NCBI GenBank assembly: GCA_049423385.1
Contig: JBMSQQ010000059.1
Span: forward strand, 1 to 22,488
Source of the DNA: Silvanigrellaceae bacterium
GTDB taxonomy: Bacteria > Bdellovibrionota_B > Oligoflexia > Silvanigrellales > Silvanigrellaceae
Direction: 5' to 3'
Length of the DNA stretch: 22,488 nucleotides
Part shown: positions 3,798 to 21,579 of the stretch, in pieces
Position numbering within the stretch: the stretch's first letter is position 1
Layout of the letters: each line of letters begins with the position of its first letter
The notes under the pieces: model-generated
Told to the model about the DNA's origin: nothing
Database searches by the model: none
Seen by the model: only the letters and a program-made list of their open reading frames with translations
Translations under genes and position numbers: made by a program

Positions 3798-3816
3798 GAA
3801 TGCATCCCCCGATGAA

Positions 3817-4920: not shown

Positions 4921-4965
4921 ACTGACTACACCTCTAGCGGATAAGTGTTTTTGGAACGATTCGCC

Positions 4966-4993
4966 AAAGTACACGATTCCAAAAATCGTGCAA
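4966..4993 (-). promoter_or_regulatory. candidate sigma70 promoter for leucine dehydrogenase with overlapping inverted repeat
   Basis: Minus strand TTGCAC-16 nt-TACTTT; perfect 7-bp inverted repeat CACGATT-N5-AATCGTG at 4972-4990. Confidence 0.35.
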
Positions 4994-5016
4994 GGACAAC
5001 AAGTTTTTCATCAAAT

Positions 5017-5970: not shown

Positions 5971-6029
5971 ACCGGATTCCTGCGGTGGACGAATTTCCGC
6001 AGGCACTTTTCCCAAGGCCGCGGTCAAAC

Positions 6030-6653
6030 TCAGCCGGATGCTAATCCACGGTTGCGCAAATTGCGAGCCTGCTTGATGAGCTCACGCGCCTTTTCGGCAT
6101 CACTGCTTTCGAGTGCCTCGGCAGCCTTCTCGATGTGCGCGAAAATTTCGTTTTCCCGCTCGTCCAGTCGTTCGAGCATTTCATTGAAACGTCGAGCCAC
6201 ATAATGAATTTCATCCGACGTTCTGAACTTTGCGTGAGCCTTGAAGTCTCCGCGCGAAACCTTTTGGAACTGACGCAGCAGATTGAACAACGGACCGACA
6301 ATGCGTTGCGTCGAAAGAATGCTGGCAAACATGATTCCAACCAGATTCACGATCAAGGCAAAACCGATGGCAACCAACACAGGAATCGGTAGTCGCTGCC
6401 CCTGCCAAATGCCAAAGCTGTAGAAGGAAATGAGAACAATGGCGATCGATGAAACCGTGCACACCAAACCCATGACCAACGCACTGCCGGCAAACTTGAA
6501 TTGCAGGTCGCGATTGACGATGTAGTTTCTTCTCCACCAGGGCAGGTAGGGACGACGGGGTCCCATCTGAGACTGGGATGATGACGCAGGATCCTGACTC
6601 AAAATCGAGTTCGGAGCAGGCTCCCTGCTCTTGTTGGATTCGTCCGTGGCCAT
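6030..6653 (-). CDS. two-TM membrane protein with HAMP domain and no output domain
   Basis: RRNYIVNRDLQFKF followed by two hydrophobic helices, then HAMP IVGPLFNLLRQFQKVSRGDF...DEIHYVARRFNEMLERL; GGAGGA RBS. Confidence 0.85.
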   Translation of the reverse strand: MATDESNKSREPAPNSILSQDPASSSQSQMGPRRPYLPWWRRNYIVNRDLQFKFAGSALVMGLVCTVSSIAIVLISFYSFGIWQGQRLPIPVLVAIGFALIVNLVGIMFASILSTQRIVGPLFNLLRQFQKVSRGDFKAHAKFRTSDEIHYVARRFNEMLERLDERENEIFAHIEKAAEALESSDAEKARELIKQARNLRNRGLASG

Positions 6654-6659
6654 GAAAAG

Positions 6660-7772
6660 TCATCCTCCGCAGTGTTCAACCGCCGCCCACAAGTCCTGTT
6701 CCGACCCGTCCGCCTTGGACACACATCGTTTTGCCGTTTCCAGAAATTTTGCCAAATCCGAGCCTGATCTTTCAAGAAGTCGCGCGAAGGGTTCTTGGCG
6801 GGCTTCATACACGGAAGCTCCCAAAAATGTTGCATTGTTGAATCGGCCCGGCTGAAAAAATGTTGCGTAATAGGTTCCGCTCACTTTTTCTCCAAATTCC
6901 CTCTGGAAGCGCGAGTCGAGCGCTGCAATTTTTTCCTCACGAAGTTTGATAAAAGCAGGGAGCTCGAGCTGCTGCACATCCGACCGAGCGTAAAATTCGT
7001 TGAGTTCGACGCGTGCGCTGTTGAGGAAAGCTCCGAACGCCTGGCGAGCCCTCTGCATGCGTTCGTGCTTTTGATGAAAGTCCTGAGCTGCCTTTTCGGT
7101 TGATGCAGCAGCGTCTTTGCCGACAGTCTCTGTTGCAAACAACCCGCTGCGTTCCTTGAGGAACATCAACGTTGCATGGCGGGCCACAAATTCAGCAAGA
7201 TTCTCGTTGAACGTGTACGCATCTGGAACATAGATCGTGCGGTGCAGCGTTTCGTGGAACAAGAGTTCAACAAACGCCAATGCATCATTGCCGTCGATCA
7301 TCGTCGAATAAATGGGATCGGGAAAATAGCCGAGCAGCGAAAAGGCCTGAACACCACCCAGCACTGTGTCATAGCCCTCTGCCACCATTTCTTTCTGGAA
7401 AACTTCGGCTTTCTTGCGATCAAAAAATCCAAGGTAGGGTTGGCGACCAACAATGGGAAACCACCATGTTTTAAGTTTGAGTGCGCGCTTTTCTGCGGCC
7501 TGGACGACGTATGTGAGCGCCGGACGATCGAGTGAAACGTAGGACCGATAACTGGACCCGGGTGTCAGGCCGATGCGGTCTTGCGCGTATGCCAACACCT
7601 CGGGCACCAACTTCAATTTTTTGAGACGTTCGGGTGTTTCACGGCCTTCCTTCAGAACATCTTCAACAGGCACGCGCCGGGAAATCAGCTTGGCCTGTTC
7701 GATGCCTTGGGTCAGGGTATAGCAGCCTGTGAAGAACAGGGATGAAGCCATCATCAGCGACAAGCGCTGCAA
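6660..7772 (-). CDS. putative zinc aminopeptidase lipoprotein (DUF2265/Aminopep-like)
   Basis: Lipobox FTGC, YRSYVSLDRP, WWFPIVGRQPYLGFF, AFSLLGYFPDP, HEXXH (ELLFHETLH), FNENLAEFV, FNNA; start uncertain (TTG 7772 or ATG 7754). Confidence 0.85.
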   Translation of the reverse strand: MQRLSLMMASSLFFTGCYTLTQGIEQAKLISRRVPVEDVLKEGRETPERLKKLKLVPEVLAYAQDRIGLTPGSSYRSYVSLDRPALTYVVQAAEKRALKLKTWWFPIVGRQPYLGFFDRKKAEVFQKEMVAEGYDTVLGGVQAFSLLGYFPDPIYSTMIDGNDALAFVELLFHETLHRTIYVPDAYTFNENLAEFVARHATLMFLKERSGLFATETVGKDAAASTEKAAQDFHQKHERMQRARQAFGAFLNSARVELNEFYARSDVQQLELPAFIKLREEKIAALDSRFQREFGEKVSGTYYATFFQPGRFNNATFLGASVYEARQEPFARLLERSGSDLAKFLETAKRCVSKADGSEQDLWAAVEHCGG

Positions 7773-7788
7773 GGATGAAGCAATGACA

Positions 7789-9039
7789 CTAGGGCGTGCG
7801 CGTTGGCGAAGGGAAGAGTTGTTTGATGACGTTGAGTCGGGAGTCAATGGTTTCTCCGCTGGCTGTGAACTGGAGCAGTGACTCCTGGAAGAAGTACACC
7901 ATGCCATTGTACCCGAAATCACGAACCATGGCAGTTTGGGCGCGAACCATGTCAATCGGCATGGGCTCGGGCTTGAGACCCGAAAGAACACCAATGATGA
8001 GGCTCGCCTTGCCTTTGAGCTTGTCGAGCACCGGACTGCTCAGCTCGCCCTGAAAACGGGCCATGTTGTCCCGGTAAACCTGGACGACAACTTCATCCAC
8101 CAGTCCTGATTCCACCCACGATGGCCAATCCTGAACGTAATTCTGGAACGACCATGGATAAGGGTTGGGCGAAACGGAGAGCTTGATTCCGGGACGTGCG
8201 GCCTTGATGGCCCGGGAAATGCGCGCAACGAATTGCTCCAGCTTTGAAGCTCTCCATGTGAGCCACTCCTGAGCCTCGGGCGCGGGAGTTCCGCTCCGAC
8301 CGGTTTCCTTTTTATAGAGGGAAAGCGTGAAATCGTCGTAGCCAAAGATATTCTTGAGCGACAGGTGGTCATCGAACTGGACGGCTGGAACTTCGTATTT
8401 GACCACAAACTCGACCATCAAAGATTCAAAGAACTGCTGAACCTCGGGATGCATGAAATTCAGGTACGATGTTGATGTTCCATCCTGATCGAAAGTCACC
8501 TTGCCGGTGTTGTCGCGCGAGAGCCATTCCGGATGCTGGGAAGCCAACGGGGAATTCGAGGGAATTTTCACGCCCCATTCGAACCAGGGAATGATGTCGA
8601 GGTCGTACTGGTTGCCGAGTGCAATCCAGTCTGCCATCGGGTCACGCTTCAGATTGCCCAGGCCATAGCGTCCCGATATTTTCGGGGCACCGTATTTCGC
8701 CATTGTTTCGCTTGGATAGAACGTCTCGCCCTTGTTCCAGACAACGGGATACAGGGCGTTCATGTTGAGGTTTGAAATTCTGGAAGCAAGGGATTCCATG
8801 TTTCCATACGAATCCATCACGTTCGAATCGACATTGCTGACCCAGACACCGCGCATTTCAGTGCCGCTGGTGACCCTGCGCTTGCGGATTTTGCGCTGTG
8901 CGCCCTGGCCGTCGTCGACCGGGGCGGATGCCTTGAATCCAATACGCAACCACTGCTGGCAGCCGGTGGACGTCGCCCCGATTGCCAGCAGTGTTGTTAA
9001 AAAGACCAAAAGTGTCGGTAACTTGTTTTTGTGCCTCAT
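7789..9039 (-). CDS. glycoside hydrolase-like family 10 (GHL10; YddW/DigH/YngK-like) lipoprotein
   Basis: Lipobox STGC, EMRGVWV, NALYPVVW, IPWFEWG, HPEW, LNFMHPEVQQF, VQFDDH, QDWPSW, VQVYR; ATGA overlap with upstream gene. Confidence 0.88.
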   Translation of the reverse strand: MRHKNKLPTLLVFLTTLLAIGATSTGCQQWLRIGFKASAPVDDGQGAQRKIRKRRVTSGTEMRGVWVSNVDSNVMDSYGNMESLASRISNLNMNALYPVVWNKGETFYPSETMAKYGAPKISGRYGLGNLKRDPMADWIALGNQYDLDIIPWFEWGVKIPSNSPLASQHPEWLSRDNTGKVTFDQDGTSTSYLNFMHPEVQQFFESLMVEFVVKYEVPAVQFDDHLSLKNIFGYDDFTLSLYKKETGRSGTPAPEAQEWLTWRASKLEQFVARISRAIKAARPGIKLSVSPNPYPWSFQNYVQDWPSWVESGLVDEVVVQVYRDNMARFQGELSSPVLDKLKGKASLIIGVLSGLKPEPMPIDMVRAQTAMVRDFGYNGMVYFFQESLLQFTASGETIDSRLNVIKQLFPSPTRTP

Positions 9040-11486
9040 GCTGCCCTGAGAGCTGTCTTCCCTGTATGGTGGATAATCTCATACAGGTCGGTACCACGCT
9101 CCAGCAAGGCCTTCAAGTTGATACTGACGCGAAGTGCCCGGAGGCCTTGGGCGCCTTGAACTTCGTCGATCAGGTACTCTTCGACATCCTCAAGGACGCA
9201 CTCCTGGGCTGCCAGGAATGTGAAGTACTCCATGTACTCAACGCGTTCACGCTCCTGGGTGAAGACCACGGCAAGCTTGCCGGGTTGGCTCAGGCGCTCC
9301 TGGGTTCCCTTGATGACCGCGCGATCAACGCGACGCTTGAGCATTTCACCACGACCATCGGCACCGCCGTCGACGTGGAATTGTTTGTCGTCGAAGTCGA
9401 ACTGAACGTTCACGGGCGTGTCCTGGACAACAATCACGTGTGTGAGGTCGAAGGGAACCTTGAGGTTCGGCTTCATGCGCGCCGACTCTGCCGCACATCC
9501 GCACATCACCATAAGCTGCCAGAGGCGAAGGTTCTTGAGATAGATTTCGTTGAACTCGCGGCCCTTCACCAACGATTGGCCGATGAGAATCGTGTGCTCC
9601 ACCGACTCATTGCAATGCTTCTCGAAGTAGTGCGGGAAGATCTTCTGGGCATTGAGTTGTTGTGCCTTCAGGTAATTCGACAGGGTCGAAGTCACTTCGG
9701 TCACGCTCGCATCGAATTCGCGACGCCGCAGATAGACGGTTCTCGATTTTTCATCGAGTTGCTTCCAGTAGGCATTGATCTTCTGGATGAGGTTCAGATT
9801 CCATCCGCGAACGTGGTTGAACACAGGCTCAACTTCCGACGCAAGGAACTTGCTGGCGGCCGTTTCATCGCCCGCGGTGAGTTGCTCACTGATACGCCCG
9901 TCGAGTTTTTCCAAACGGAAGCAGAGTTCACGCAGGAAAGGCATCGGGCGGTTCTCGTACGCCATTTGAAGAACTTCAAGCGCAAGACCAATCTGGGTGC
10001 GCAGGTCGTCCTGAACCGCTTTTGAACGCAGCGCCGCCGAGTTGCGGATGGTGCTGAGTGCATAAAGTGGATAGACATCCTGGAAGTAGATGTTCTTCAT
10101 CTCGAGCGACTTGCTGCCTTCGGCGCGCTCGGATGCGATTTGCGCCTCTTCATGGAAACGCCACTCGACGGTTGGATGAATGGATGTGCATTGTTCGGAG
10201 ATGATCGACTGCACAGCCTGCTTGACGTCGTCGATGCGGCGCTTGCCGGCAAGGCAAAGCAAAGGCATCAGGTCGAGCAGTTTCTCCGCGACCGCTTCGT
10301 TGATGTCGTCCTTCTTTGGAGAAGTCACATCGAAAAAGCCAATGTGCTGGTCGTCGAAGAACAACGGGAAGACAGCGAGTGAGCGTGCACCGTGGTTCAA
10401 CATGTCGGATTCTATCTTGGAACGATCCGCGCTCGACGCGAGGTCCAGACAAACCATGCTTCTCTGCTGCGTGCGTGCGCGCTCGAGCATGTCGTTTTGC
10501 AGAGCGAACAACGAACCTTGTAGATCCTCACGATTGTAGCGTTCAACCGAGACGCCATCTCCAGCTTTGCGCTCCATGCCTCCCGCAAGGCGGGTTCTGG
10601 ACAAAAGACCACCCACGCTGGAGCTCAATCCCACACTCAAATGTGGCCGGCGGAGAATTTGGCGAATTGCGGTTTCGACTTTGCCCAAAAGAAATCCTGG
10701 CTCAACGGAATCGCGATCCGTAAGTGCGCGCTGGATGTCGGTGAATGAGTTTTGGTCGGTGATGTCGTTGCTGCGGTAAAACGCGAAACCGTGGAACTCG
10801 AACCAGTTGGGTGGCAGAAGCTCACGCCACTTCTCAACATCATTCACGTCTGCAAGCAGGTCGCGCTTGATTTTTTCGTCGAGAACCTTGGGACCACCCA
10901 CGTTGACGACGTCGCAGAAGCTTGGCTCCATTGTCACGCTGTGGAAGCGGCTAAGGTTCGTGTTTTTATCCTGGGTTGAAAACGCAACAGGGCGGGTGCC
11001 GAGTTCAAGCTCGATGCCATACAGGCGACGCAGGATAGTTGAATAGGCCAATTTGATGCGTTGGTTCAGCCATGCGTCTTCGCCAATCTGACAGGTTGCT
11101 GCAAACCGGCCATTCTTGTCGAAAAATGCGTCGAAAAAGGTTTCGGAAACCATGATGGGCTGAACGTGGAACGGCAACACCGCACCACTGCTCTCCGGGT
11201 TCTTGAAACCCGATGACCACAGGATGCTCATCATCACCTTGATGAGTGATTCATGCGTTTGAATCACCTTGGAGTCTGTGATGGGTTGTGCGAGTTCGGG
11301 CGCACGCTCCAGACGACGCATCACATCGGATGCGATTTTGGAGACGGTCGGTTCTTGCGATGCAACCAAACCCGCCCAATAACGAACCAATGGACCCATG
11401 CTCAACACACATTTGAATGGAAATTCCTTGGTATCCTGCATGACACGAAGATGGGGAACCAATCTTGGACCTTGGCCTTGAAACAT
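9036..11486 (-). CDS. large cytoplasmic GAF-domain protein (816 aa) of a conserved uncharacterised family
   Basis: GAF-like segment GARSLAVFPLFFDDQHIGFFDVTS; C-terminal blocks IHPTVEWRF, VYPLY, FPHYFEK, YLKNLRLWQL, ERLSQPGKLAVVF, QGAQGLRALRV; GAGGT RBS. Confidence 0.7.
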   Translation of the reverse strand: MFQGQGPRLVPHLRVMQDTKEFPFKCVLSMGPLVRYWAGLVASQEPTVSKIASDVMRRLERAPELAQPITDSKVIQTHESLIKVMMSILWSSGFKNPESSGAVLPFHVQPIMVSETFFDAFFDKNGRFAATCQIGEDAWLNQRIKLAYSTILRRLYGIELELGTRPVAFSTQDKNTNLSRFHSVTMEPSFCDVVNVGGPKVLDEKIKRDLLADVNDVEKWRELLPPNWFEFHGFAFYRSNDITDQNSFTDIQRALTDRDSVEPGFLLGKVETAIRQILRRPHLSVGLSSSVGGLLSRTRLAGGMERKAGDGVSVERYNREDLQGSLFALQNDMLERARTQQRSMVCLDLASSADRSKIESDMLNHGARSLAVFPLFFDDQHIGFFDVTSPKKDDINEAVAEKLLDLMPLLCLAGKRRIDDVKQAVQSIISEQCTSIHPTVEWRFHEEAQIASERAEGSKSLEMKNIYFQDVYPLYALSTIRNSAALRSKAVQDDLRTQIGLALEVLQMAYENRPMPFLRELCFRLEKLDGRISEQLTAGDETAASKFLASEVEPVFNHVRGWNLNLIQKINAYWKQLDEKSRTVYLRRREFDASVTEVTSTLSNYLKAQQLNAQKIFPHYFEKHCNESVEHTILIGQSLVKGREFNEIYLKNLRLWQLMVMCGCAAESARMKPNLKVPFDLTHVIVVQDTPVNVQFDFDDKQFHVDGGADGRGEMLKRRVDRAVIKGTQERLSQPGKLAVVFTQERERVEYMEYFTFLAAQECVLEDVEEYLIDEVQGAQGLRALRVSINLKALLERGTDLYEIIHHTGKTALRAA

Positions 11487-11616: not shown

Positions 11617-12750
11617 TCATTCACACGCCGGAACAACCAACGCCGACAGTACGTATCCAAGGCCAATGCGACCATCGACACAAGGGCCCTTGACTTGAGT
11701 CCAACTCCCCGACACCGAAAGTCTTTCGAGCGAAGTTCCAAGCGGAATCTTGCAAAGAATCTTTCCATTCGGAACGTCGCGCAAATTGGTTGGAGTTGGG
11801 GAAATTGTTGTCAACTTTTTGCATTCCGCCAAGGGTGGTTGAGTTGGTACAGGAATTGGTTGTCCCGCAGCGGCAACATGCGGACGAAATGGCATCACCG
11901 CACCCGCACCATCGGTGGCCAACGCCTGTGCGTTTTTCATTTCCTTGAGGATTTCTGGAATGACTGTCAGCGTCACGTGATAGTTTGTAGGGTCGAGGTC
12001 ATCGATTTCGGGAATCACGATTCCCACGTCGGCAAGAATTCCCTGATTATCACGTTGACGACTCAACCAAGGCGTGGGCATCCATTTGCGCTTGTAACCT
12101 TGTTGATACCAACCCAATGGAATCATGTGCGGGCGCCAGGGCCGGTCTTCGGGGCGATACCAATTGTTGTGATATAGAAGCTGGTGATCATTGCTGTCGA
12201 TATCGCCAACAAGACTGATATGACCATCGCCCGCTTGCCCGGAACAGTCGGGTCGAAGGCAACCACTGACCAGGGTTCCAACCGGCACGGCACCGCTGAA
12301 ATACTGCTCGAGCACTTTGGCAATCGCACGTGTCTCGCGCGGGAGCGGAATCACCCACCCTCCCCGCAAACGGGCTGCATTCACCATGTCGGCGAGCAAC
12401 GGCGAGCTGTAGGACGTGATACCTGCCATTTCAAAAACGCGTGAAACGTTGTTTGCGCACTGTGCCGGCATCGCATAGCGATCAGCCTCGGCTTGTTGTT
12501 TCTTCATCCACTCCAGTGCGGCTGCAAAAATGCGTTCACCCGTTGGAGTGATTCTTTCGAAACGATGATTCCGCAACAGTTCAATCCGGTTGAACGAGAC
12601 GTTCTCAACGTTCAACAGGTCGGAATCTTCGCTGTCTGCGTTGAAGGTTCTTTGCTTGCATGAAAACAACAAGACCAGGGCAAAAACTGCCGCAAGAAAC
12701 TTGCAGGCAATTCTTGGGAAAACCTCGTTTGTCATTCGAATCAATCGCAT
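11617..12750 (-). CDS. lipoprotein, putative papain-fold (NlpC/P60/CHAP-like) Cys-His amidase with C-terminal SH3b-like domain
   Basis: Lipobox LFSC; QCANNVSRVFEMAG and GHISLVG; Pro-rich linker; TNLRDVPNGKILCKIPLGTSL...GSWTQV...GYV (SH3b-like); start set at ATG 12750 from AAGGGAG RBS. Confidence 0.65.
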   Translation of the reverse strand: MRLIRMTNEVFPRIACKFLAAVFALVLLFSCKQRTFNADSEDSDLLNVENVSFNRIELLRNHRFERITPTGERIFAAALEWMKKQQAEADRYAMPAQCANNVSRVFEMAGITSYSSPLLADMVNAARLRGGWVIPLPRETRAIAKVLEQYFSGAVPVGTLVSGCLRPDCSGQAGDGHISLVGDIDSNDHQLLYHNNWYRPEDRPWRPHMIPLGWYQQGYKRKWMPTPWLSRQRDNQGILADVGIVIPEIDDLDPTNYHVTLTVIPEILKEMKNAQALATDGAGAVMPFRPHVAAAGQPIPVPTQPPLAECKKLTTISPTPTNLRDVPNGKILCKIPLGTSLERLSVSGSWTQVKGPCVDGRIGLGYVLSALVVPACE

Positions 12751-12840
12751 CAATTCAAATCTCCCTTGGGGGATTCTAAACATTTTCCGCGCGCGAATCA
12801 TTGGGAAGATTTTCCTTGTCAGGCAGCAGTCGGCGGCTTT

Positions 12841-15099
12841 TCAACCCGCCCGGAGTGCACTTTCGACAAATCCGGGCTTGTCCGGTGGAACGTCGACAAT
12901 TTTCTCCTGAGCTGGCCAGCGGACAATCATCATTGTGACGTCGTCGGCATATTCTTCCTCGCCCCAAAGTGCCTTGGCTTCACTCATGATCTGTTCGCGA
13001 ACCTCGGTGACCGGCCGTCCTGATGAAAGCAAATCATAGAAGCGCCGTTTGCTGAGCATCTCGTTCTTGGGCCCGTGATTTTCAAGCAATCCATCGGTGT
13101 ACATGGCAAACAAATCGCCCGCCTCGAGCTGCAGTTTCTTCACCGTGATGCTGCGGTCGAGCGACACTCCCAACGGGTTTCCTGTCGAGGTTTGTGGGGA
13201 GATCTTTTTGGTCTTGTTCTTGAACCAGAGCAACGGAGTATGGCCTGCACTGGCGTAGTAGAGCTCGCCCGTTTCCGTGTTCAGCGACACCAGGCACATG
13301 GTCATCAGACGCGCGGACTTGCCGACGCTCATGATGGCGCGGTTGAGAATCGAAGCCATGAATTCAAGGCGATCAGTCTCGCCCATTGTATCGCTTGCCT
13401 TGACGATGTCCATCACCGTCTGTGCTCCCATAAACGAGCCATAGGCAACTCCGGTCATGATTGCCGCTGGCACCCCGTGACCCGTCACGTCACCCACAAG
13501 ACCGTGCAGCCATGGAGAGTTGTCGCTTTTGTCGAAGAACAGCCAGTCTCCACCGCAACGTGTTGCTGCCTCGTAATAAAAGTCGAGGTCGGCATTCATT
13601 TCGGGTTTGCCGGAAGGCAGCAAAGATGCCTGAACGGCTTCTGCAGTGACGAGTTCGTTTTCGAAATGAACTGTTGCCAACTGTTCTTCCTGGAAGTCGA
13701 ACATCACCAACGCGTGACCCAGTGCTCCCGACAAAAGGTTCATCAGATGCCGTTCGGTTGTGTTCAGCGAATCTTCAGGAAAGCCATCGAGGAGCAGAAA
13801 CAATTTGGGTTTGCTGCCCGAAAAGGCCCTGATGATGATTGTGTGGTCCAGGATGGACGCAGGATCGTTCGACATCACGTCGTTGAGATCGATGCCCGAC
13901 TCGTCCAAGGGTATGATTTTGGGTTCAGGAACCAAAACTCCGGACTTGATATAGTCGAGGAGCCCCTTGCACTCGCCCTTGGCGACATCAAAGACAATGC
14001 CCGTTGCGTCCATGTTGCCACTGAAACCGGCGTAACGGCGTACTTCGTTGATGAACAGGCGAATGCATTCTTCACGATTGGCAGACAAAGCCATGTCGTT
14101 TGAAATCTTCATCACGAATTCAAGGTTGGAACTGATCTGGCGCAGTTCTGTTTCACGAATCTGCAACCTTTGCGCCATTTGTTGCAAACCGCGGGCCACA
14201 AAATTGAGTTCCTCATCGAATTTCACGTTGAAGGTGATGTCGTATTGACCAGCTGAAATTTTGAACATGGCATTTACGATTTCACGGAGTGGACGCAAGA
14301 GACCAAGCAAGAGGAAATCAGTGACCAAAATCACCAGCCCAATGAGGCTCAGGGCAAGAATACCTGCAAGACCCGCAAACTTGCGGATGGGTGCATTCAA
14401 GGATGCCAACGATGTTTCAACAAAAACAATCACATTCGTTCCGGGAATTTCGCGGAATGAAATGATCCATTGGTTCTTTCCATCTGTATAGCGGGTGAAG
14501 CCCTCGCGCAGACCGCTCTTGATGAACTTTTTTGTTCCAGGCCGGGCAGCAAAGTTGCTCGAATTCACGTCGCGCACGTCATACGAACCAAGAAAGATAC
14601 CAAATGAGTTGGAAATGTAACTTTTTCCATCGATGCCTTCAAAAAGGCGAACGTTGGGATCGAGCTCCGTTCGCCAGATCATTTCTCCCTCGGCTCGGCC
14701 AAAAACGTAAACCTTGTCTTTGTAGCGACCTACAAAAATCTGGTCTTCAGCAGGCATCTGGGGAATGTTGTATTGCGCCGCAAGTTTGCTTTCCTCAACT
14801 CCTCGGACCTTGATGAGATCCTGTCGCGGCAGATTTGAAAAATAAAGTTTCAGTCTTGTCGCTACTGCACTCGTCTTGAGATAGTGATTTTCGTAAACGT
14901 AAGACAACTTGTCGGAACGATAGAGGGTGATTCCCGTCACGAGAATCGCGACAACACTCACGACCAGAATGAATGTCTGTACGAAACTCAATCTGCTCTT
15001 GAGGCTGCTGCGATCCCACAAGGCAAAAAAATCGAATACCTTGAACAAGGCCTTCGTTGTAATATTGTCTTTTGCAGGCTTGAGGGCACGTTGGTTCAT
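12841..15099 (-). CDS. membrane sensor PP2C/SpoIIE-family Ser/Thr phosphatase (2 TM, Cache-like periplasmic region, HAMP, possible GAF-like region)
   Basis: AEAVQASLLP, GGDW, VGDVTGHGVPAA, SAGH, GNPLG, YTDGLLE, ADDVT; HAMP LRPLREIVNAMFKISAGQY...EELNFVARGLQQM; ATGA overlap with upstream gene. Confidence 0.92.
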   Translation of the reverse strand: MNQRALKPAKDNITTKALFKVFDFFALWDRSSLKSRLSFVQTFILVVSVVAILVTGITLYRSDKLSYVYENHYLKTSAVATRLKLYFSNLPRQDLIKVRGVEESKLAAQYNIPQMPAEDQIFVGRYKDKVYVFGRAEGEMIWRTELDPNVRLFEGIDGKSYISNSFGIFLGSYDVRDVNSSNFAARPGTKKFIKSGLREGFTRYTDGKNQWIISFREIPGTNVIVFVETSLASLNAPIRKFAGLAGILALSLIGLVILVTDFLLLGLLRPLREIVNAMFKISAGQYDITFNVKFDEELNFVARGLQQMAQRLQIRETELRQISSNLEFVMKISNDMALSANREECIRLFINEVRRYAGFSGNMDATGIVFDVAKGECKGLLDYIKSGVLVPEPKIIPLDESGIDLNDVMSNDPASILDHTIIIRAFSGSKPKLFLLLDGFPEDSLNTTERHLMNLLSGALGHALVMFDFQEEQLATVHFENELVTAEAVQASLLPSGKPEMNADLDFYYEAATRCGGDWLFFDKSDNSPWLHGLVGDVTGHGVPAAIMTGVAYGSFMGAQTVMDIVKASDTMGETDRLEFMASILNRAIMSVGKSARLMTMCLVSLNTETGELYYASAGHTPLLWFKNKTKKISPQTSTGNPLGVSLDRSITVKKLQLEAGDLFAMYTDGLLENHGPKNEMLSKRRFYDLLSSGRPVTEVREQIMSEAKALWGEEEYADDVTMMIVRWPAQEKIVDVPPDKPGFVESALRAG

Positions 15100-16040
15100 T
15101 GGAAAACCCTCACGCCTTCAAACCATTTGCCATCTTCCGGCAGATAGTCCTCTTCATCCCGCTTGATCGCTCGGATCACGACGGGTGGAGAAGCATAAAG
15201 CTCATCATCCGACATTGCCTGGAAAACAAACATCCCTGGCTTGTCGATGGGCACACGCGGGAATCCGGCAGATCCCAGCGACGACCAGTGTGGCTCAAGT
15301 TCCTTGCCTTTCCAAAGATATCCCCACAGCTTTCCTGTTTTCGGAAGTTGATCAAACGTCACGGGAATGGATGTTGGAAACTTCGTCGCAATCACTTCAA
15401 CAAATGGACCAGGAAAGCGCACAGTCAGGGCTTTCGTGTTGCGGACAATCTTCAAGTCCTCATCCGTGATGACATCGGCGGGCCGGTTGGCCGGATCGTT
15501 TTCGTCGGCACCCGCCTTTTTGATTGTCGGGTTCTGGATGACACGGGTCGAAAATCGTGCTTCGGTGAGAGGCGATTTGACCTTTTGTTCTGGCGCCTGT
15601 CCCAGATCGGCAGAAACACCACCCGAGGTTCTCAATTTTGATGTTTGCGGTACCGTGATTCCCACGTGGAACAAGGATCCTTCCGGCAGTGTCACGATTG
15701 AATCCTGTTCCAAAAAAAACAAGACAACCTTTGCTTCGTCATCCACATACACAAGGTCACCGGGATGCAGTTCAATTCCTGCCTTGAGTGGCCACCAGTT
15801 GAGCCAGGATGATCGCTTGTAACGTGCTTCTCCTTCAACATCCAGCGCGTAGACCGGGCTGTCGGTGGCAGGAGTGGCAGCCTCTCCGTACGATTCGGCC
15901 AGACCTTTTTTCAAAATTTCCCATTTGTTTTTTTGCGTCCTGCTGGTCACAAAGAATGCAAGGAGTGAAAGGAAAACCACTCCCGCGAGAATCTTCTGAA
16001 ATTGGCTCAGCTGGTTCAGCCACGCAGGATTGAATTTCAT
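15096..16040 (-). CDS. single-pass membrane protein with FecR-like periplasmic domain and beta-rich C-terminal domain
   Basis: N-terminal TM; VEGEARYKRSSWLNWWPLKAGIELHPGDLVYVDDEAKVVLFF...IVTLPEGSLF resembles FecR beta-domain; ATGA overlap with motB. Confidence 0.6.
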   Translation of the reverse strand: MKFNPAWLNQLSQFQKILAGVVFLSLLAFFVTSRTQKNKWEILKKGLAESYGEAATPATDSPVYALDVEGEARYKRSSWLNWWPLKAGIELHPGDLVYVDDEAKVVLFFLEQDSIVTLPEGSLFHVGITVPQTSKLRTSGGVSADLGQAPEQKVKSPLTEARFSTRVIQNPTIKKAGADENDPANRPADVITDEDLKIVRNTKALTVRFPGPFVEVIATKFPTSIPVTFDQLPKTGKLWGYLWKGKELEPHWSSLGSAGFPRVPIDKPGMFVFQAMSDDELYASPPVVIRAIKRDEEDYLPEDGKWFEGVRVFQ

Positions 16041-17002
16041 GGCGCCTTGTCCTTTTTGAGGATGACGACAATCCTGTCGTTGCCCGGAGAAAAATCTTCT
16101 CGTTGTTTTGGTGAAAGATTCTCGCCCAGGACAATGGGCCTGCCATCGGCATAACCAGCACTTGCGACTTTTTTGTGGGGAATTCCTTCTTTTATGAAAT
16201 ACTCAAAAAAGACACCCGCACGCATGGTTGCGAGTTTCAGGGTGCTGAAGTCGGATTGGCCTTTGAGGTTGGCCAGCATCGCCTTCGAAAACTCTGTGTG
16301 AACCTCGATTTCGGTGAACGACAATTTTTCAACAACAGCCACTTCAGCAGCCAGTTGCTTGAGGTTGATTTGCCCCTGGGGCGTGAGGTCTGCGGTACCT
16401 TTTGCAAAGAACTCCGTGTGGGGAAAGACGAGCTGCATGGGCAAGGGAATGTTTGTTCCGGACAAGTATTTGCTCTTCTTTTTTGCCTCTTCCTTCTTTT
16501 CAGCTTCCTTGCCCGCACCACGGGCGAGTTTTACATCTGCCTTTTCCTGGCGTTCGAGCATGAAGCGAATCGCGGCTGCGATTTCTGCACTCTTGTCGCC
16601 CCCTGCTTCACCACCCGAGGATGCCAACTGCTTCGCATCCAGGGCGCCGTTGCGTGGACCAATGACGACTCCGTCCTTGTCCTCTTCTTCCTTCAAGAGC
16701 TGTGGCTTCTTGTCGCCCTGGAGCGCCTGTTGAACCTCTGCAAATTTCTTTTCGTCGATTTGGGAAATTGAATACATCACGATAAAAAACAGCAGCAGGT
16801 TGAAGAGCATGTCATTGAAGCTGTAGAGCCACAATGTGTCGTCGCTTTCGTGTCCGCCGCCACCACCGCCGCCGTCGTCTTGGCTGGCAGCCTTTCTCTT
16901 TGGCAAAGGCATTTGCGGCTTTTTTTTCTCAAGAAGCTTCCCTGCCGAACCATCCGCCGGCGAAGAAGTGTTCTTCAGGTTTTCGAAAAAGCCTCGAGCC
17001 AA
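16037..17002 (-). CDS. motB: MotB-family stator subunit with divergent OmpA-like C-terminal domain
   Basis: TM WLYSFNDMLFNLLLFFIVMYSIS with the essential Asp; plug DEKKFAEVQQAL; FFAKGTADL, IEVHTE, LATMRA, SAGYADGRP, NDRIVVIL; TTG start with AGGAGA RBS. Confidence 0.88.
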   Translation of the reverse strand: MARGFFENLKNTSSPADGSAGKLLEKKKPQMPLPKRKAASQDDGGGGGGGHESDDTLWLYSFNDMLFNLLLFFIVMYSISQIDEKKFAEVQQALQGDKKPQLLKEEEDKDGVVIGPRNGALDAKQLASSGGEAGGDKSAEIAAAIRFMLERQEKADVKLARGAGKEAEKKEEAKKKSKYLSGTNIPLPMQLVFPHTEFFAKGTADLTPQGQINLKQLAAEVAVVEKLSFTEIEVHTEFSKAMLANLKGQSDFSTLKLATMRAGVFFEYFIKEGIPHKKVASAGYADGRPIVLGENLSPKQREDFSPGNDRIVVILKKDKAP

Positions 17003-17030: not shown

Positions 17031-17825
17031 TCAGGCCGCCTTTCCTCCTCCACCAACTCCAAGCACATCCACCCGTTGTTCTTCCTTCAGGTACGAATTC
17101 AACTTTTCCTGAACGAAAAGTGGTGCTTCTTTGTTGGCCAGCATCAACACGCCCTGAAGAATGATTTCACGCTCCTTGAGTTCCGCCTTGTCCCTGTGTT
17201 CCGAGTTTTCACCCAGGGGCATGATGATAAAGTTCGCAGCCAACAAGCCAATGAGTGTTCCCACCAGTCCCACCGCCATTGATGGCCCGAGGTCACCCGC
17301 TTTGAGTTCGCCACCCAGGCGTTGCATCACCGCAATCAGCGACACCACACAGGCAATGATTCCGAAAGCGGGCGGATATTTTGCCAGCGCTTTCAATCCA
17401 TGCGTTTTTTTGCCGAGATATTGTTTGTGACTTTCAATACGGTCGGTCAGAATCGAATCGATTTGTTCGGGCTTGAAGCGGTCGAGGATCAAACCCACAC
17501 CTTCCTTGAAAAAAGCTTGCTGGATTGTTCCCAATTGTTGCTCAAGAAGTCGTGGGTCACCATTTGTGACCTTGGCAACCGTGACGATCTCGGTGACGAT
17601 CTCCTGTTTGCGATCGACACGGCGTTTGAAGCCTTCAAGCATTGCCTTGAAGATGCGTTTGACTTCGTCGAACGTGTTGGCCATGAATGCCATGGCAACC
17701 GTGCATCCGACAATCAGCAAAAATCCAGGGATGTCGTTGAAGACCTTGAGGTCCTTCACCGAGTGCTGGATGATATAGAAAGCAAACACCCACGCCAGAA
17801 TAAAACCAATGATGGTTGAACTCAT
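17031..17825 (-). CDS. motA: MotA-family stator subunit
   Basis: Four-TM pattern; PGFLLIVGCT, FFKEGVGLILD, YPPAFGII, LGPSMAVGLVGTLIGLLAAN.IIMP, EIILQGVL...EAP...EKLNSYL; AAGGAGG RBS. Confidence 0.93.
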   Translation of the reverse strand: MSSTIIGFILAWVFAFYIIQHSVKDLKVFNDIPGFLLIVGCTVAMAFMANTFDEVKRIFKAMLEGFKRRVDRKQEIVTEIVTVAKVTNGDPRLLEQQLGTIQQAFFKEGVGLILDRFKPEQIDSILTDRIESHKQYLGKKTHGLKALAKYPPAFGIIACVVSLIAVMQRLGGELKAGDLGPSMAVGLVGTLIGLLAANFIIMPLGENSEHRDKAELKEREIILQGVLMLANKEAPLFVQEKLNSYLKEEQRVDVLGVGGGGKAA

Positions 17826-17867: not shown

Positions 17868-20138
17868 TCATGACGCCTCTGCATCTTCGCCATCACCTCC
17901 ATCGCCTGCCAGCTCAATAAGACCTTGCTCGCGCATGTCCTTGACCTGCCGGATGAGCGACGCCTGAATCTTTTGACCTTCGAACTCCGCTCTTTTGCGG
18001 GCCATCTTGGAGCGCTCGAATTTTTCCAGTTCCTGGCGGATGGCAGCCTGGATCTTGGCCGAAGTGAAGAACTCGTTGATGCGATCATTGAGTTCTTCAG
18101 GCAGCGAAACCAGAAGTGTTGCAACGTCCACCGGTTCGAGTTCTGCCAGCAGCTCCGCAAGGGTTTCGTCGTCGAGGCGAAGAACTTCTTCAATCGTCAC
18201 GACACGGGAACCCACCTGTTGCGAGAGTTGCTTGTCGGCGCGCAATACCTTGCTCACAGCGGTGCGGAATTCCGGACTTGGTGCATCGAGCATGAGCATC
18301 AGGTGGTTGGTCACGTCGAACCTGGAATCGCCCCCACTGTCGCTGTTGATTCTGCCCTTCACATCATCGAGTGCCGCTTTCGCGTCGTCTTCACTCATTT
18401 CGGTTGCTTCACGCATGGCCTCGAGCAATTCCATGCTGTCGTGATTGCGCACTCCGGGAATGATTCGAGCGCAGCGCTCGGGAGTCAGAAGCACCATCAG
18501 ACGAGCTGCCTCGGCTGTTCCGGAGTCAGACAAAGCCGCGCTCAGGTCGAGGTCGGTGGCCTTGATCAGGAAGCTCATATCGAGATTGACAAAGTAGCTT
18601 GGCTTGCGGCTGATTTCCCGGCCTGCCAATCGATAGAGCTGAAGAACAACCTTGTAAGCCTGGGCCTTTGCCAACGGCTCATACAATGCATTGCCAAGCG
18701 CCTCAATTTCCTCTTTCGGAAAAACCTTGAAAATTTCACGAGAGGCGTTGGGACCCACAGCCTCGGCAAAGCCCGCAAATTTGGTTCTTTCTCGCTTGTC
18801 TGCAAGCCAGTCCTTCAGAACGCTGAGCATCGGATATCGACTTTGGTTCATCTCGGCGATCAGGCTTTGCGCTTCCTTCTCAAGAGCGATCAGTTCCTCT
18901 GATGTTGAGTCACCGGATGATTGCATCCCCTGTTGTTGAAGAGCGCCTGCCCCACCCGCTGAAACGTTGATGGCATCGCCTTGCTGCTTGCCTTGCACTT
19001 TGGCGGCCTGGACAATCGACTCACCGATTTTCGCGACGGCAGTCGAGACCTGCATCATGGTTGCGCTCATGTCGGTGCTTGCCGATTTCACTCGCGATGT
19101 CTGGATAAGAACGATGACAAGGATTCCAACCAGGCCCAAAAGAACGGCCGGCACCACTGTCAGTGGCAACTCCAAACCGGCGATCAATTTCTTGAACTTG
19201 CCAACCGGAGACTTGGAGTCCTCCGTGAGGTCCTTGTTCTTTTGGTTCAGGTCGGCAATCTGTTTCTTGAGGTCATCGATTTCAGTCGAAAGCTTTCGGC
19301 GTTCTTCCTCCGCTTTGTTGGTTTTGTCTTGTTCCTCGCGCTGCTTGAGTTTGGCATCATCGGTTGCCTTGAGAGCTTCACGAAGCTGTGTTTGTGCGTC
19401 CTGTTCCTTGCGCTTGGCCTCGTTCACTTCGCGTTGCGCATCGCTTTCGCGTCGACGAATGGCTTCTATTTCGCGTTGCAGGCTGTCGATTTGGGATTTG
19501 TACTGAAGACTTTCCTTCTCTGCTTTTTCGACTTTCGACTTGGAGCGCCCGGCCGTAAGGTCCTTTTGATTGACGCCAAGTTTGTCTCCACGCTTCGCAT
19601 TCAAGCGAAGATAGGCAAAAAGTGTATTCTTGAGGTCGGCAACCGAATCCTTGGGATATGTCTGGTCGAGGGTGACCACAACCGAAACGCGCTGCGCGTT
19701 GGCAAGAATCTCCAAAGGTGTGAGCGCATTCAAAAGACTGATGAGCGCGTCGTCATTACTGATGCCTTTCGCAAGTGCACCGCGAGACAATTTCGACACG
19801 TTCCCACCCGCAGACTGGCGCAGCGTATTGAGTTTTGAGACCGGGAATTCAACCTTCACGGTCGTCAGGAAAGGTGGATCCGTGACTGCCTCGAGCCGCT
19901 TTGTGAGTCGCTCTTCCAAATACGCTTCAGCTTCTGCCACCTTCGCATCAAGGGTCTGGCTGAGTGTCGCGCGACCACTCGTTTGTGCCTGGGCCGATGG
20001 AACGAGTCCAAGAAAAATATTCAGGGCAATGGCAAACAAAATCACGAATGCAGCCAAACCAGCCGACCTTTGCGAAATCTTGCCGTTTGCAAGCACTTTC
20101 GCTGCTGAATTTGATTCACCTTGTGGCAGCTGTTTCAT
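17868..20138 (-). CDS. FliF-FliG fusion rotor protein (signal peptide, RBM3-like domain, coiled coil, TM, FliF C-terminus, FliG N/M/C)
   Basis: AQA|Q signal peptide; EAYLEERLTKRLE, RVSVVVTLD, LRLNAKRGDKLGV (FliF RBM3-like); TM LTVVPAVLLGLVGILVIVLI; PMLSVLKDWL (FliF-C); AVGPNASREIFKVFPKEEIEAL (FliG-N); VVTIEEVLRLDDETLAELL...QASLIRQVKDMREQGLIEL (FliG-C); start set at ATG 20138. Confidence 0.8.
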   Translation of the reverse strand: MKQLPQGESNSAAKVLANGKISQRSAGLAAFVILFAIALNIFLGLVPSAQAQTSGRATLSQTLDAKVAEAEAYLEERLTKRLEAVTDPPFLTTVKVEFPVSKLNTLRQSAGGNVSKLSRGALAKGISNDDALISLLNALTPLEILANAQRVSVVVTLDQTYPKDSVADLKNTLFAYLRLNAKRGDKLGVNQKDLTAGRSKSKVEKAEKESLQYKSQIDSLQREIEAIRRRESDAQREVNEAKRKEQDAQTQLREALKATDDAKLKQREEQDKTNKAEEERRKLSTEIDDLKKQIADLNQKNKDLTEDSKSPVGKFKKLIAGLELPLTVVPAVLLGLVGILVIVLIQTSRVKSASTDMSATMMQVSTAVAKIGESIVQAAKVQGKQQGDAINVSAGGAGALQQQGMQSSGDSTSEELIALEKEAQSLIAEMNQSRYPMLSVLKDWLADKRERTKFAGFAEAVGPNASREIFKVFPKEEIEALGNALYEPLAKAQAYKVVLQLYRLAGREISRKPSYFVNLDMSFLIKATDLDLSAALSDSGTAEAARLMVLLTPERCARIIPGVRNHDSMELLEAMREATEMSEDDAKAALDDVKGRINSDSGGDSRFDVTNHLMLMLDAPSPEFRTAVSKVLRADKQLSQQVGSRVVTIEEVLRLDDETLAELLAELEPVDVATLLVSLPEELNDRINEFFTSAKIQAAIRQELEKFERSKMARKRAEFEGQKIQASLIRQVKDMREQGLIELAGDGGDGEDAEAS

Positions 20139-20161
20139 GTTGCCCACCCATATCGTCAGGC

Positions 20162-20182
20162 GCAGACGGCACGCCATCTGCT
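20162..20182. promoter_or_regulatory. palindromic element giving sigma54-like -24/-12 boxes on both strands
   Basis: Plus strand CGGCACG-CCAT-CTGCT; minus strand TGGCGTG-CCGT-CTGCG; both have GG-N10-GC; lies in the divergent intergenic region. Confidence 0.4.
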
Positions 20183-20228
20183 TCACCAATCGTCTTCATC
20201 GGAAATTTGGAAAAAGTGTTCACTCCCC

Positions 20229-20249: not shown

Positions 20250-20374
20250 ATCCACCATGTCTGACGAACTCTTCCCGTTCGCCCTTGGCCCTCCTTCAAT
20301 CCCACAGGCATAATTGGGTTGCGTGAATGTTTTTGAAATTCAGGATTCGAGTTGAAGAGGTCGTTGCGTTATTT

Positions 20375-20992
20375 ATGGGTGTCTCAAAAATCATCGTACC
20401 GGCTGTGTTTTTCCTTCTTGTGGGTTGTGCGAGTGTGAGCATCACAACAAAACCACCTGCTGCCGACGTCATCCTGGCCGTACCAGGCCAAGAGACAGGA
20501 AAGCTTCTTGGCAAAACACCACTCCAACAGAATCTTTCTGAAATCACCAAACTCTCGAACCGAAGCACGATTGTTGTGACTCTGAAAAAATCGGGATATC
20601 GCAGCCAGAATTTTGTGATTCCGAATCTGGGTGGTGGAAAACTCGAAATCGAAGCCAATCTCTTGCCCATCGGCTCCGACGATTCTGCAGACATCAACAT
20701 TGCCGTGCGTTACCTTCTTGAAGCGGAAAAATACATTATCGAGAAGAACTTCAAGGAAGCGCTGAAGGCATTGGAGAAGTCTCGAGCGTCGAATCCAAAC
20801 ATCGCAGCGGCATACACTTTTGAAGGCACCATCTACATGTTGCAGAACCAGGTCGAAAAAGCCCGTGAAGCCTTCTACAAGGCACTTGCGCTTGATCCAC
20901 AGGACGCGGAAGTGCGAGCTTTGTTGGCCGAGACCGGTGGCAACAGCAATTCGGCTCCTGCGGGCAAAGGCAAGGGAAGAGGCAAAAGATGA
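20375..20992 (+). CDS. lipoprotein with PEGA-like domain and C-terminal TPRs
   Basis: Lipobox LVGC; SITTKPPAADV...LGKTPL...LKKSGY (PEGA-like); AAAYTFEGTIYMLQNQVEKAREAFYKALALDPQD (TPR); start set at ATG 20375 to give a normal signal peptide. Confidence 0.82.
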   Translation: MGVSKIIVPAVFFLLVGCASVSITTKPPAADVILAVPGQETGKLLGKTPLQQNLSEITKLSNRSTIVVTLKKSGYRSQNFVIPNLGGGKLEIEANLLPIGSDDSADINIAVRYLLEAEKYIIEKNFKEALKALEKSRASNPNIAAAYTFEGTIYMLQNQVEKAREAFYKALALDPQDAEVRALLAETGGNSNSAPAGKGKGRGKR

Positions 20993-21579
20993 GGTTTTCC
21001 TGTTTCCTGCTGGCGATGCCTTTTTGCTGGACGGCCGCGGCCAAAGCCGAAGTCGTGTCCGCAGTCTCTGCCTCCAGCGGACTGATTCTGGCCAACATTT
21101 CCGGTTACCGGGTGGGCCAGGACAGCATCTCCAAGAATTTTGATGCAAAGTGGTTGTCGTTTCGATCGCGAATCCTGGCTGCCGTGGGAGAATTCCAGGT
21201 TGGCTTGTCTTCAAAATTCAAGGCGACCCAACTCATGGAAACCCGGACGGGAATTCAATATTACCCATTTTCGTATGGCGCCGATTTCGAGGATTTTCAT
21301 GAATCCACCATCATGCGTTACTCGTCGTCCCTCAAACCCTACCTGGCAGCCAAGGTGGGCTATGGACGATATCTCATCTCGATTGTCGACGACCTGGGGT
21401 CTGCCGAGGTCAGCTCGAACTATTTTTCAGTGGGAGGTGCCTTCGGCACCGTATACCAGTTCTCCCAGAGCGCCGGCCTGGACCTCAACGTTGATGCCTC
21501 CATGGCCCTGGGCACCAGCGAGGTCGCCTTCACGGGTATCATCCTAAGACCCCGTTTTGGCTTGCTTCTGTATCTCTGA
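20989..21579 (+). CDS. small outer-membrane beta-barrel protein (about 8 strands)
   Basis: AKA|E signal peptide; amphipathic strands TRTGIQYYPF, KPYLAAKVGYG, SVGGAFGTVYQF; terminal strand RPRFGLLLYL; ATGA overlap with TPR gene. Confidence 0.75.
   Translation: MRFSCFLLAMPFCWTAAAKAEVVSAVSASSGLILANISGYRVGQDSISKNFDAKWLSFRSRILAAVGEFQVGLSSKFKATQLMETRTGIQYYPFSYGADFEDFHESTIMRYSSSLKPYLAAKVGYGRYLISIVDDLGSAEVSSNYFSVGGAFGTVYQFSQSAGLDLNVDASMALGTSEVAFTGIILRPRFGLLLYL

Follow-up and report, generated by a model that had tools for sequence, protein, structure and literature searches.

The window analysed here, a stretch of 22,488 nucleotides (contig JBMSQQ010000059.1 of the Silvanigrellaceae assembly GCA_049423385.1), encodes on its minus strand a single long protein in which a shortened FliF-like membrane protein continues into a FliG-like protein, directly beside genes for a MotA/MotB-type stator. 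The combined evidence indicates that this is probably a paralogous, cut-down FliF-FliG fusion which serves as the torque-receiving partner of a private stator, in an envelope machine that is either non-flagellar or an accessory of the flagellum. To our knowledge FliF, FliG and MotAB are met with almost only as parts of the flagellum. The open reading frame (ORF) and the parts recognised in its product, numbered on the protein P0002, are as follows:

17868..20189, minus strand: complete ORF of the fusion (FliF/FliG-like), a single open frame that starts at a TTG and has 773 codons
19986..20069, minus strand: N-terminal hydrophobic segment (P0002 residues 24-51), from hydropathy; ends A-x-A/G before QTSGR
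19554..19973, minus strand: putative periplasmic RBM3-like domain (56-195), from fold match, hhalign, profile and PF08345
19218..19553, minus strand: long predicted helix or coiled coil (196-307), from the model (pLDDT ~75-79); coiled-coil matches only
19086..19187, minus strand: transmembrane helix (318-351), from hydropathy; preceded by a nearly invariant G-x-E-L-P
18801..18902, minus strand: conserved cytoplasmic helix at the junction (413-446), EA..AW ... Y..L..L[KR][DE]WL, from model and conservation
18606..18797, minus strand: FliG N-like domain (448-511), starting at K448, the junction proposed earlier
18210..18587, minus strand: FliG middle-like domain (~518-643), from the fold match to 3ajc; EHPQR not conserved
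17916..18203, minus strand: FliG C-terminal (torque) domain (646-741), Pfam FliG_C 28.7 bits against a cut-off of 23.3

The likely start of the gene is the ATG at 20138, which lies 17 codons inside the ORF (M18, the database start) and yields the 756 amino acids of P0002, a product that the source databases label 'hypothetical protein'. The original prediction, made from the letters of the sequence, held that the frame runs free of stops through a FliF/FliG junction, and the minus-strand translation of 17868-20189 bears this out: it holds SLIAEMNQSRYPMLSVLKDWLADKRERTKFAGFAEAVGPNASREIFKVFPKEEIEAL without a stop, with ...LKDWLAD followed at the junction by KRERTKF.... The junction peptide, first placed at 18690-18857, actually spans 18696-18866 (-), a shift of 6-9 bases only. 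All 17 near-full-length relatives (67-92% identical to P0002, each on its own contig) are collinear across the junction, most residues of which are invariant, and in all 12 genome loci, drawn from 12 species represented by metagenome-assembled genomes (MAGs) and assigned to Silvanigrellaceae, Silvanigrellales, Silvanigrella or simply 'Pseudomonadota', a relative of the fusion covers the junction unbroken. In 10 of these loci the match is uninterrupted across the junction; L015 ends at a contig end ~55 residues past it and L016 starts ~30 residues before it. We further compared four sequencing runs, none of them marked as one from which the window might derive. In two runs, from two studies, a contig bridges the junction codon (~18797), namely X4 record 1 (18300-18914) and X6 record 7 (18538-18965), both free of differences and gaps, and contigs of the X5 and X7 runs end near the junction without insertion or deletion. 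Finally, a profile search of 1.84 billion cluster representatives returned 55 proteins at E <= 0.001, about 35 of which are 650-790 amino acids long and align over most of their length at 16-29% identity. Since the fusion is common to relatives at this distance it must be old, which bears out the earlier suggestion that the short junction had evolved rather than arisen by read-through of a stop. From the open frame in relatives, loci and run contigs it therefore follows that the ORF is one genuine, conserved gene. A seemingly split form in genome G001 was set aside: the flagged internal TAG falls outside the real ORF of 648 amino acids, which is intact.

The cytoplasmic part of the fusion was modelled on its own as P0074 (ORF residues 426-773, built on a 50-row alignment). 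This model has a pLDDT of 90.7 and replaces a weak whole-protein model (pLDDT 56.9, with the cytoplasmic part below 50), with which Foldseek found nothing at E <= 0.001, though FliG and FliF entries topped its list. Queried with P0074, Foldseek put FliG structures in every one of its first 13 ranks (probability 1.00), among them the full-length proteins of Aquifex and Salmonella (3hjl, 8umx_B). In VIA-align, model residues 40-103 align with residues 6-71 of the FliG-N chain 5tdy_B, which comes from the complex of cofolded FliFc and FliGn (PDB 5tdy), with Z 6.2, a root-mean-square deviation (rmsd) of 2.7, 64 aligned residues and 20% identity. Model residues ~110-335 match the FliG middle and C-terminal domains of 3ajc (Z 10.9; residues 110-333 to chain 105-323), and the C-terminal domain matches 1qc7_B (Z 10.9, rmsd 2.4, 89 aligned) and the stator-bound 8ucs_H (Z 9.3). 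Residue 40 of P0074 is the first K of KRERTKF, so that the FliG-N-like domain, aligned to 5tdy_B from K448, starts exactly where the junction had been placed.

Profile comparisons extend this picture to the family. The diverse family profile reaches the T. maritima FliG middle and C-terminal domains at E 1e-19, the FliG_C hidden Markov model (HMM) is found in 35 of 36 diverse members, and the FliG_N HMM (positions ~4-58) falls right after the junction motif in three distant members, below cut-off. Model and profiles together show a FliG part that is complete but divergent, with N, M and C in order. In the window protein Pfam recognises only FliG_C and the related MgtE_N, and the latter is matched in 22/36 diverse members. 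An MgtE magnesium channel was considered and rejected: only MgtE_N, which is homologous to FliG domains, matched, with neither a CBS domain nor the MgtE membrane domain. The charges of the torque helix, read at columns aligned to T. maritima FliG, are largely retained (K/R in 32, E/D in 33 and R/K in 33 of the 36); in P0002 the helix includes K695, E703 and K706. The E. coli positions cited for the torque helix assume a correspondence between the E. coli numbering and the T. maritima protein. The E. coli numbering itself is that given in the available portion of PMC12505986. The EHPQR motif of FliG-M, by contrast, which according to the accessible text of PMC7355467 binds FliM, is not conserved: T. 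maritima 'SEHPQT' aligns to variable family columns, and the window protein reads D-S-G-T there.

Upstream of the FliG-like part the protein is ordered as an N-terminal hydrophobic segment, an RBM3-like domain, a helix of ~110 residues, a transmembrane helix and a low-complexity, Gly/Gln-rich linker, followed by the L-[KR]-[DE]-W-L helix and FliG N/M/C. When the RBM3-like domain was compared with 48,161 representative chains in VIA-align, the top three matches were all FliF S-ring/RBM3 structures of Vibrio and Salmonella (8z5v_A, Z 14.2, rmsd 2.0, 98 aligned; 8z4d_1, Z 12.7; 6scn_A, Z 12.6), over 96-99 aligned residues at rmsd 2.0-2.2; the next folds were PrgK (4oyc_B, Z 8.1), SpoIIIAG (7.9) and SpoIIIAH (7.0). 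The pLDDT of this domain in the whole-protein model is ~80. The sequence evidence for its RBM3 identity is weaker than that of the fold and consists of an hhalign match between the family and 16 FliFs (residues 59-200 to FliF 241-427, E 8.7e-5, probability 60%), in which the RGD...V of the family pairs with GRD.ITV of FliF, of a match of the family profile to the FliF chain 9yh6_Oj (E 0.005), and of PF08345, which appears below cut-off in 6/36 diverse members, the four matches located at E <= 0.02 all lying within the RBM3-like domain. The model range 56-195 is ~60-70 residues shorter than the FliF stretches it matches (255-452 and 228-438), and model helices 101-146 seem to occupy the place of the FliF beta-collar, as judged from a single model on a shallow alignment. 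No match to PF01514 (YscJ_FliF), the family of RBM1/RBM2, was found in the window fusion protein at E <= 0.01; nor is PF01514 among the families of P0002, or among the top 25 families, by frequency, of the 17 close (E <= 10) or the 36 diverse members (E <= 1), and the same family scores 184 bits on the genome's own, real fliF.

The N-terminus of the fusion is variable up to QTSGR, which is invariant in 17/17 close relatives, and the hydrophobic segment before it would be either a signal peptide or a first transmembrane helix, and may be cleaved. Around the long helix, the spacer between the RGD-like and ELP motifs measures 60-139 residues in the 16/36 members in which both motifs were found; at the transmembrane helix, G321 and E323 are nearly invariant in the diverse family alignment. 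After the linker, the junction helix (P0074 residues 5-38) is modelled at pLDDT 96-98, and its L-[KR]-[DE]-W-L is the best-conserved stretch in the 36 diverse members (mean column identity 26%), with L in 31, K/R in 34, D/E in 35, W in 30 and L in 27 of them. It stands directly N-terminal to the residues aligned with FliG residue 6 of 5tdy_B. Because the part upstream of it appears to be FliF-derived (RBM3) and the order is collinear, we place this helix at the position of the FliF C-tail; it would occupy that place by position, collinearity and a confident model, sequence homology being undetected. The FliFs of its own phylum end ...IRQLL, without a Trp.

The genes that accompany the fusion in the window are:

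17031..17825, minus strand: MotA-type stator A subunit, MotA_ExbB 57.7 bits; directly downstream of the fusion gene
16037..17002, minus strand: MotB-type stator B subunit, MotB_plug 48.4 bits, OmpA 24.7 bits (below its cut-off of 27.2)
15096..16040, minus strand: membrane-anchored protein of 314 amino acids, no Pfam/NCBIfam match
12841..15099, minus strand: membrane HAMP-PP2C (SpoIIE-type) phosphatase, SpoIIE 129.6 bits, HAMP 27.8 bits; conserved downstream
11617-12801, minus strand: membrane protein of 394 amino acids, no family; follows the phosphatase
20327..20992, plus strand: TPR protein with an N-terminal hydrophobic segment, from TPR families; divergent from the fusion gene
20989..21579, plus strand: small secreted protein of 196 amino acids, itself without a Pfam match

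The best solved relatives of the window MotA are flagellar MotA (6ysf_E, 1e-25; 8ucs_C) and PomA (8bri_A), all between 1e-25 and 1e-20, and its scores on the NCBIfam PomA/MotA equivalogs (~105-107 bits) stay below the cut-offs of 237-394. MotB likewise remains below the equivalog cut-off (best NCBIfam score 52 bits); its transmembrane segment reads ...SFNDMLFNLL..., with an Asp which we take to be the channel Asp of MotB. By plug, Asp and best solved relatives the pair can be assigned to the flagellar class, though below equivalog cut-offs. MotA and MotB adjoin the fusion gene in 11 of the 12 loci, the twelfth contig ending inside the gene, and the 314-amino-acid protein and the phosphatase follow wherever the locus contig is long enough. 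Over the phylum a MotA relative lies within 1.5 kb in 20/30 loci, including some in which the fusion is ~28% identical; at the latter the order is MotA-MotB-fusion-314-amino-acid protein. The TPR gene adjoins the fusion gene in 11/12 loci and the small secreted protein is kept in 9/12. In the loci examined the module adjoins no flagellar genes.

By sequence comparison the whole module is present twice in the source genome. The second copy lies in L052 (C49:9000-21000), where it spans 2261-10822:

2261-3067, plus strand: MotA, 27% identical to the window MotA (1e-33)
3064-3933, plus strand: MotB with plug
between MotB and HAMP-PP2C in the order listed: protein of 327 amino acids
4937-7171, minus strand: HAMP-PP2C phosphatase, 4e-28 to that of the window
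7168-9471, minus strand: protein of 767 amino acids with the topology of the fusion and a distant FliG-like end
9559-10212, minus strand: small protein with a weak match to outer-membrane barrels, 7e-7 to the small secreted protein of the window
10172-10822, minus strand: TPR protein, 27% identity, 3e-21

The four genes from the phosphatase to the TPR protein share one direction here and overlap, and residues 413-731 of the 767-amino-acid protein align to the junction helix and the FliG part (hhalign E 7.6e-10, probability 96.5%).

The source genome, that of a freshwater bacterium, is assembled into 183 contigs and is 90.6% complete. It carries a canonical fliF on C33 (540 amino acids, 184 bits to YscJ_FliF), whose close relatives bear the name FliF in records of Fluviispira, Spirobacillus and Silvanigrellaceae and for whose near-identical relatives PF01514 and PF08345 are precomputed, as well as a canonical fliG on C21 (332 amino acids, 141 bits to FliG_C). 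A MotA/MotB pair on C67 reaches the flagellar equivalog cut-off (MotA 248.4 against 237 bits). The fusion, a membrane-anchored protein of 756 amino acids whose neighbours, MotAB apart, are non-flagellar and form no flagellar operon, is thus an extra system beside the canonical flagellar genes. In BLASTP its best E is 0.002 to its own genome's FliG, a local match, and 1.6 to its FliF, values near noise and uninformative.

Surveys of 34 genomes of the order and 131 of the phylum showed how widely the fusion is spread. Within the order, strong full-length matches occur in genera g1-g5 and g9 and none in g8, including its closed genomes, which have canonical FliG only. In the phylum 60/131 genomes match at E <= 1e-15, a count that includes canonical FliGs at ~1e-16; matches to nearly the whole profile in frames of 640-860 amino acids are found in families f1, f2, f3, f5, f8, f9, f13, f16 and f17, and partial profile spans in f18 and f19, those of f18 also in some of its larger closed genomes. 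FliF is present in 114/131 phylum genomes. Since 12/13 genomes of genus g8 carry fliF and none of the 13 carries the fusion at E <= 1e-15, a flagellum does not need the fusion.

RBM domains oligomerise into rings, and the fusion protein might likewise oligomerise into a ring by way of its RBM3-like domain. A private, proton- or ion-driven MotAB would then push on the charged FliG-C torque helix, as in the flagellum, making the fusion protein the rotor-side partner of a dedicated stator, with its junction helix, the FliF C-tail by position, permanently co-folded with FliG-N. Were the N-terminal segment cleaved, the RBM3 domain would sit at the far end of the ~110-residue helix, ~16 nm away if straight, where it could meet the TPR and barrel-like neighbours. 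Because RBM1/2 are absent there is no seat for an export gate and, with apparently no beta-collar and with no conserved FliM motif either, the fusion therefore cannot be a flagellar basal body; its most likely place is in an envelope machine of its own or in an accessory role at the flagellar motor.

Several observations weigh against the interpretation of this protein as the stator-driven partner in such a machine. The RBM fold is a common one, and the hhalign probability and the PF08345 matches given above are low and sub-cut-off, respectively. Compared with the C-termini of 16 same-phylum FliFs, the junction helix (family columns 1-45) gave hhalign E 0.46 over 6 columns, and phmmer with the 45-residue junction stretch found nothing among PDB chains at E <= 10. 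In the torque helix the acidic position equivalent to D288 is variable. The window MotA has an Asn where, by the numbering we assume, R90 of E. coli MotA aligns, with a gap in the alignment there. Lastly, no well-assembled genome with the module but without a flagellum was found among the 131: the only candidate, G049, which has a full-length relative and lacks FliF and FlhA, is 59% complete, and G052, without a FliF match, has FlhA. In both of these MotA is adjacent to or near the fusion relative.

In its boldest form the interpretation would be of a free-standing, flagellum-independent rotary or force-transducing nanomachine, in which an RBM3-FliG ring is turned by the private MotAB without secretion gate, rod, hook or filament, a ~16 nm periplasmic stalk passes the motion to TPR, barrel-like and FecR-like partners, and HAMP-PP2C exerts control. 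We offer this tentatively, as a possibility with the odds against it; if true, it would be the barest known flagellar rotor-stator core, an offshoot or relic that bears on the origin of the flagellar motor.

Other lineages add periplasmic and cytoplasmic scaffolds to their flagellar motors. A serious alternative, if a rather unlikely one, is an accessory of this sort, in which the fusion forms, or becomes part of, an extra ring around the MS/C ring and brings in a further set of specialised stators. It would be consistent with the presence of fliF in every reasonably complete genome that has the module, with stator paralogs of flagellar type (the plug, and best solved relatives that are MotA/PomA) and with the FliG-type charges kept in the torque helix. 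Against it stand the flagellated genus g8, which does without the fusion, and the position of the module, never beside flagellar genes in the loci examined. Moreover the module has a HAMP-PP2C, a TPR and a small secreted protein of its own and is duplicated as a whole, and because EHPQR is not conserved no link to FliM is expected, given the role of that motif in the accessible text of PMC7355467.

Alternatively, there might be no torque at all, the FliG/MgtE_N-like domains being a platform in a HAMP-PP2C signalling pathway and MotAB a gated ion channel or peptidoglycan anchor. We regard such a non-rotary scaffold as distinctly unlikely. The constancy of the HAMP-PP2C phosphatase as a neighbour, the MgtE_N matches in 22/36 members and the one variable acidic position of the torque helix would fit it, but three FliG domains follow each other in order, the FliG-C fold matches the stator-bound 8ucs_H (Z 9.3), relatives at 16-29% identity still carry two opposite charges on the torque helix, plug and channel Asp persist in the stator, and there is neither a CBS domain nor an MgtE membrane domain.

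The original prediction had assigned the gene to the flagellar motor, as the cell's own MS-ring protein fused to the C-ring protein with a 1:1 stoichiometry fixed thereby. That one unbroken ORF holds a FliF-like part, a membrane helix and FliG does speak for this, and laboratory FliF-FliG fusions assemble rings in the accessible text on them (PMC7355467). This assignment nevertheless fails on the separate canonical fliF (540 amino acids, C33) and fliG (332 amino acids, C21) of the genome, on the absence of RBM1/2 from the fusion, on BLASTP matches to the cell's own FliG and FliF that are near noise, and on the lack of a flagellar operon, and we consider it very improbable. Of the forced stoichiometry, the 1:1 ratio stands, as it follows trivially from any fusion, and the flagellar motor to which it was attributed does not. 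As for an assembly chimera or a sequencing error joining two genes, dozens of independent contigs and genomes have this frame open and the bridging contigs of two studies differ nowhere, which makes the chance of such an artefact negligible.

To return to the preferred interpretation, a torque-receiving fusion with its own stator, the closest comparison is with flagellar FliF and FliG themselves (PDB 5tdy, 5wuj; rings 6scn, 8z5v). Both have, in the same order, an RBM3-type domain, a membrane helix, a helix before FliG-N, FliG N/M/C and a charged torque helix, and a flagellar-type MotA/MotB stator stands beside the fusion as well. Unlike the flagellar pair, the fusion is one polypeptide without RBM1/RBM2, with an EHPQR that is not conserved and no flagellar operon; its model has a helical insert in place of the beta-collar and a ~110-residue helix between RBM3 and the membrane, and it co-exists with canonical fliF and fliG. 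PrgK/SctJ and SpoIIIAG/SpoIIIAH share the alpha-beta-beta-alpha-beta ring-building fold (Z 8.1, 7.9, 7.0), but score lower than FliF RBM3 and have neither a FliG part nor stator genes.

In TolQR-TolA, ExbBD-TonB, GldLM and ZorAB a stator-like ion motor has as its partner a long inner-membrane protein, rich in helix, which extends into the periplasm. The module in the window resembles them in combining an ion motor with such a protein, and with Tol-Pal it also has neighbouring TPR and outer-membrane-type proteins in common, purely as an analogy. In contrast to these systems, coupling here would be through a cytoplasmic FliG domain that faces the cytoplasmic side of MotA, and not through a tail of MotA or a membrane helix within the motor, and the window stator is of the flagellar class with a plug. 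These four are named among 5:2 MotAB-like motors in the available parts of 10.1101/2024.03.12.584617 and PMC12505986. The latter surveys MotAB relatives and sets the flagellar ones apart from generic ion-driven motors, and its available part mentions no FliG-linked non-flagellar module.

Natural and engineered FliF-FliG fusions have precedents. The natural one of Chlamydiaceae, as described in the accessible part of Bergeron 2016 (PMC4768692), has ~330 amino acids with RBM2, one RBM-like stretch and a FliG-M-like region only. By that published description, with which alone it can be compared here, it resembles ours in being a natural in-frame union of a shortened FliF (signal sequence, fewer RBMs, two membrane helices) with a FliG-like part (PMC4768692), and in that the gene builds no complete flagellum where it occurs, whereas ours has ~750 amino acids, an RBM3-type domain, a long helix, full FliG N/M/C and a link to MotA/MotB. 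Engineered FliF-FliG fusions of Salmonella and Vibrio assemble rings (PMC7355467, available text; PDB 8z4d). They share with ours the covalent link of the FliF C-terminus to FliG, but are full-length flagellar proteins joined in the laboratory, whereas ours is a natural paralog of ancient origin that differs by large deletions and insertions. What is new here, set beside the accessible account of the Chlamydiaceae fusion (PMC4768692), through which a natural FliF-FliG fusion was already known, is a natural, ancient FliF(RBM3)-FliG fusion that probably serves a private stator. In the full-text literature searched (supplementary files excluded) we found no published description of the fusion family or of a FliG-MotAB module outside flagella, and there is a fair chance that the module marks a machine so far undescribed in print.

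One gene here unites a ring-building domain, a membrane anchor, a helix in the FliF-tail position and a whole FliG, and it travels with its own stator and regulator, duplicated as a module and spread over many families of one phylum. If the fusion forms a stator-driven ring, it would offer structural and single-molecule studies a rotor-stator pair that is minimal by nature, with the 1:1 FliF:FliG link and a co-folded FliF-C:FliG-N domain built in, and would bear on whether the torque core of the flagellum can exist or evolve apart from the type III export apparatus. If instead it is an accessory, duplicated rotor parts would here have given rise to a motor embellishment of a new kind.

Regarding the remaining neighbours in the window, the 314-amino-acid protein is co-located with the fusion both in the close loci and in those of ~28% identity; it has no match among PDB sequences (best E 1.2), and a FecR-like reading of it is a lead only (Atlas score 0.86). 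The 196-amino-acid secreted protein is possibly an outer-membrane beta-barrel, again as a lead only: its C49 counterpart (BLASTP 7e-7) has a sub-cut-off OMP_b-brl match. The 394-amino-acid membrane protein (50-71% identity in close loci) may belong to the module. A protein of 816 amino acids is encoded at window 9036-11486 (-), with a weak GAF_2 match only.

Elsewhere in the genome, the C33 fliF is not followed by fliG, the next gene being an unrelated ORF of 173+ amino acids, and the C21 fliG lies upstream of an ORF of 431 amino acids that is FliH-like by eye only. Two further soluble FliG_C paralogs were seen, at L004:1471-2433 (-) on C96 (320 amino acids) and at L002:1393-1950 (-) at a contig end of C117 (at least 185 amino acids), with no MotAB in the short flank of either. 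At the contig end L020:52-870 (-) on C13 there is a MotA/PomA-like gene scoring 141.6 bits to the PomA model, below cut-off, and the genome holds four flagellar-class MotA paralogs.

Beyond this genome, those of family f15 (G080, L048:1543-2535 (-), and G081-G083), two of them closed, show no FliF/FlhA matches. Their soluble proteins of 330-370 amino acids match the family profile from the junction helix onward at E 7e-32 to 9e-20, better than canonical FliGs do, and start with ...VLVEWMEA..., which resembles the LKDWL helix. In the Atlas, clusters of FliG_M + FliG_C proteins of 500-620 amino acids were found in Pseudomonadota and Elusimicrobiota, with YscJ_FliF_C in 22% and 55% of their members. 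These clusters (scores 0.85-0.87, leads only) hint that FliF-FliG fusions occur in nature more widely than published work suggests.

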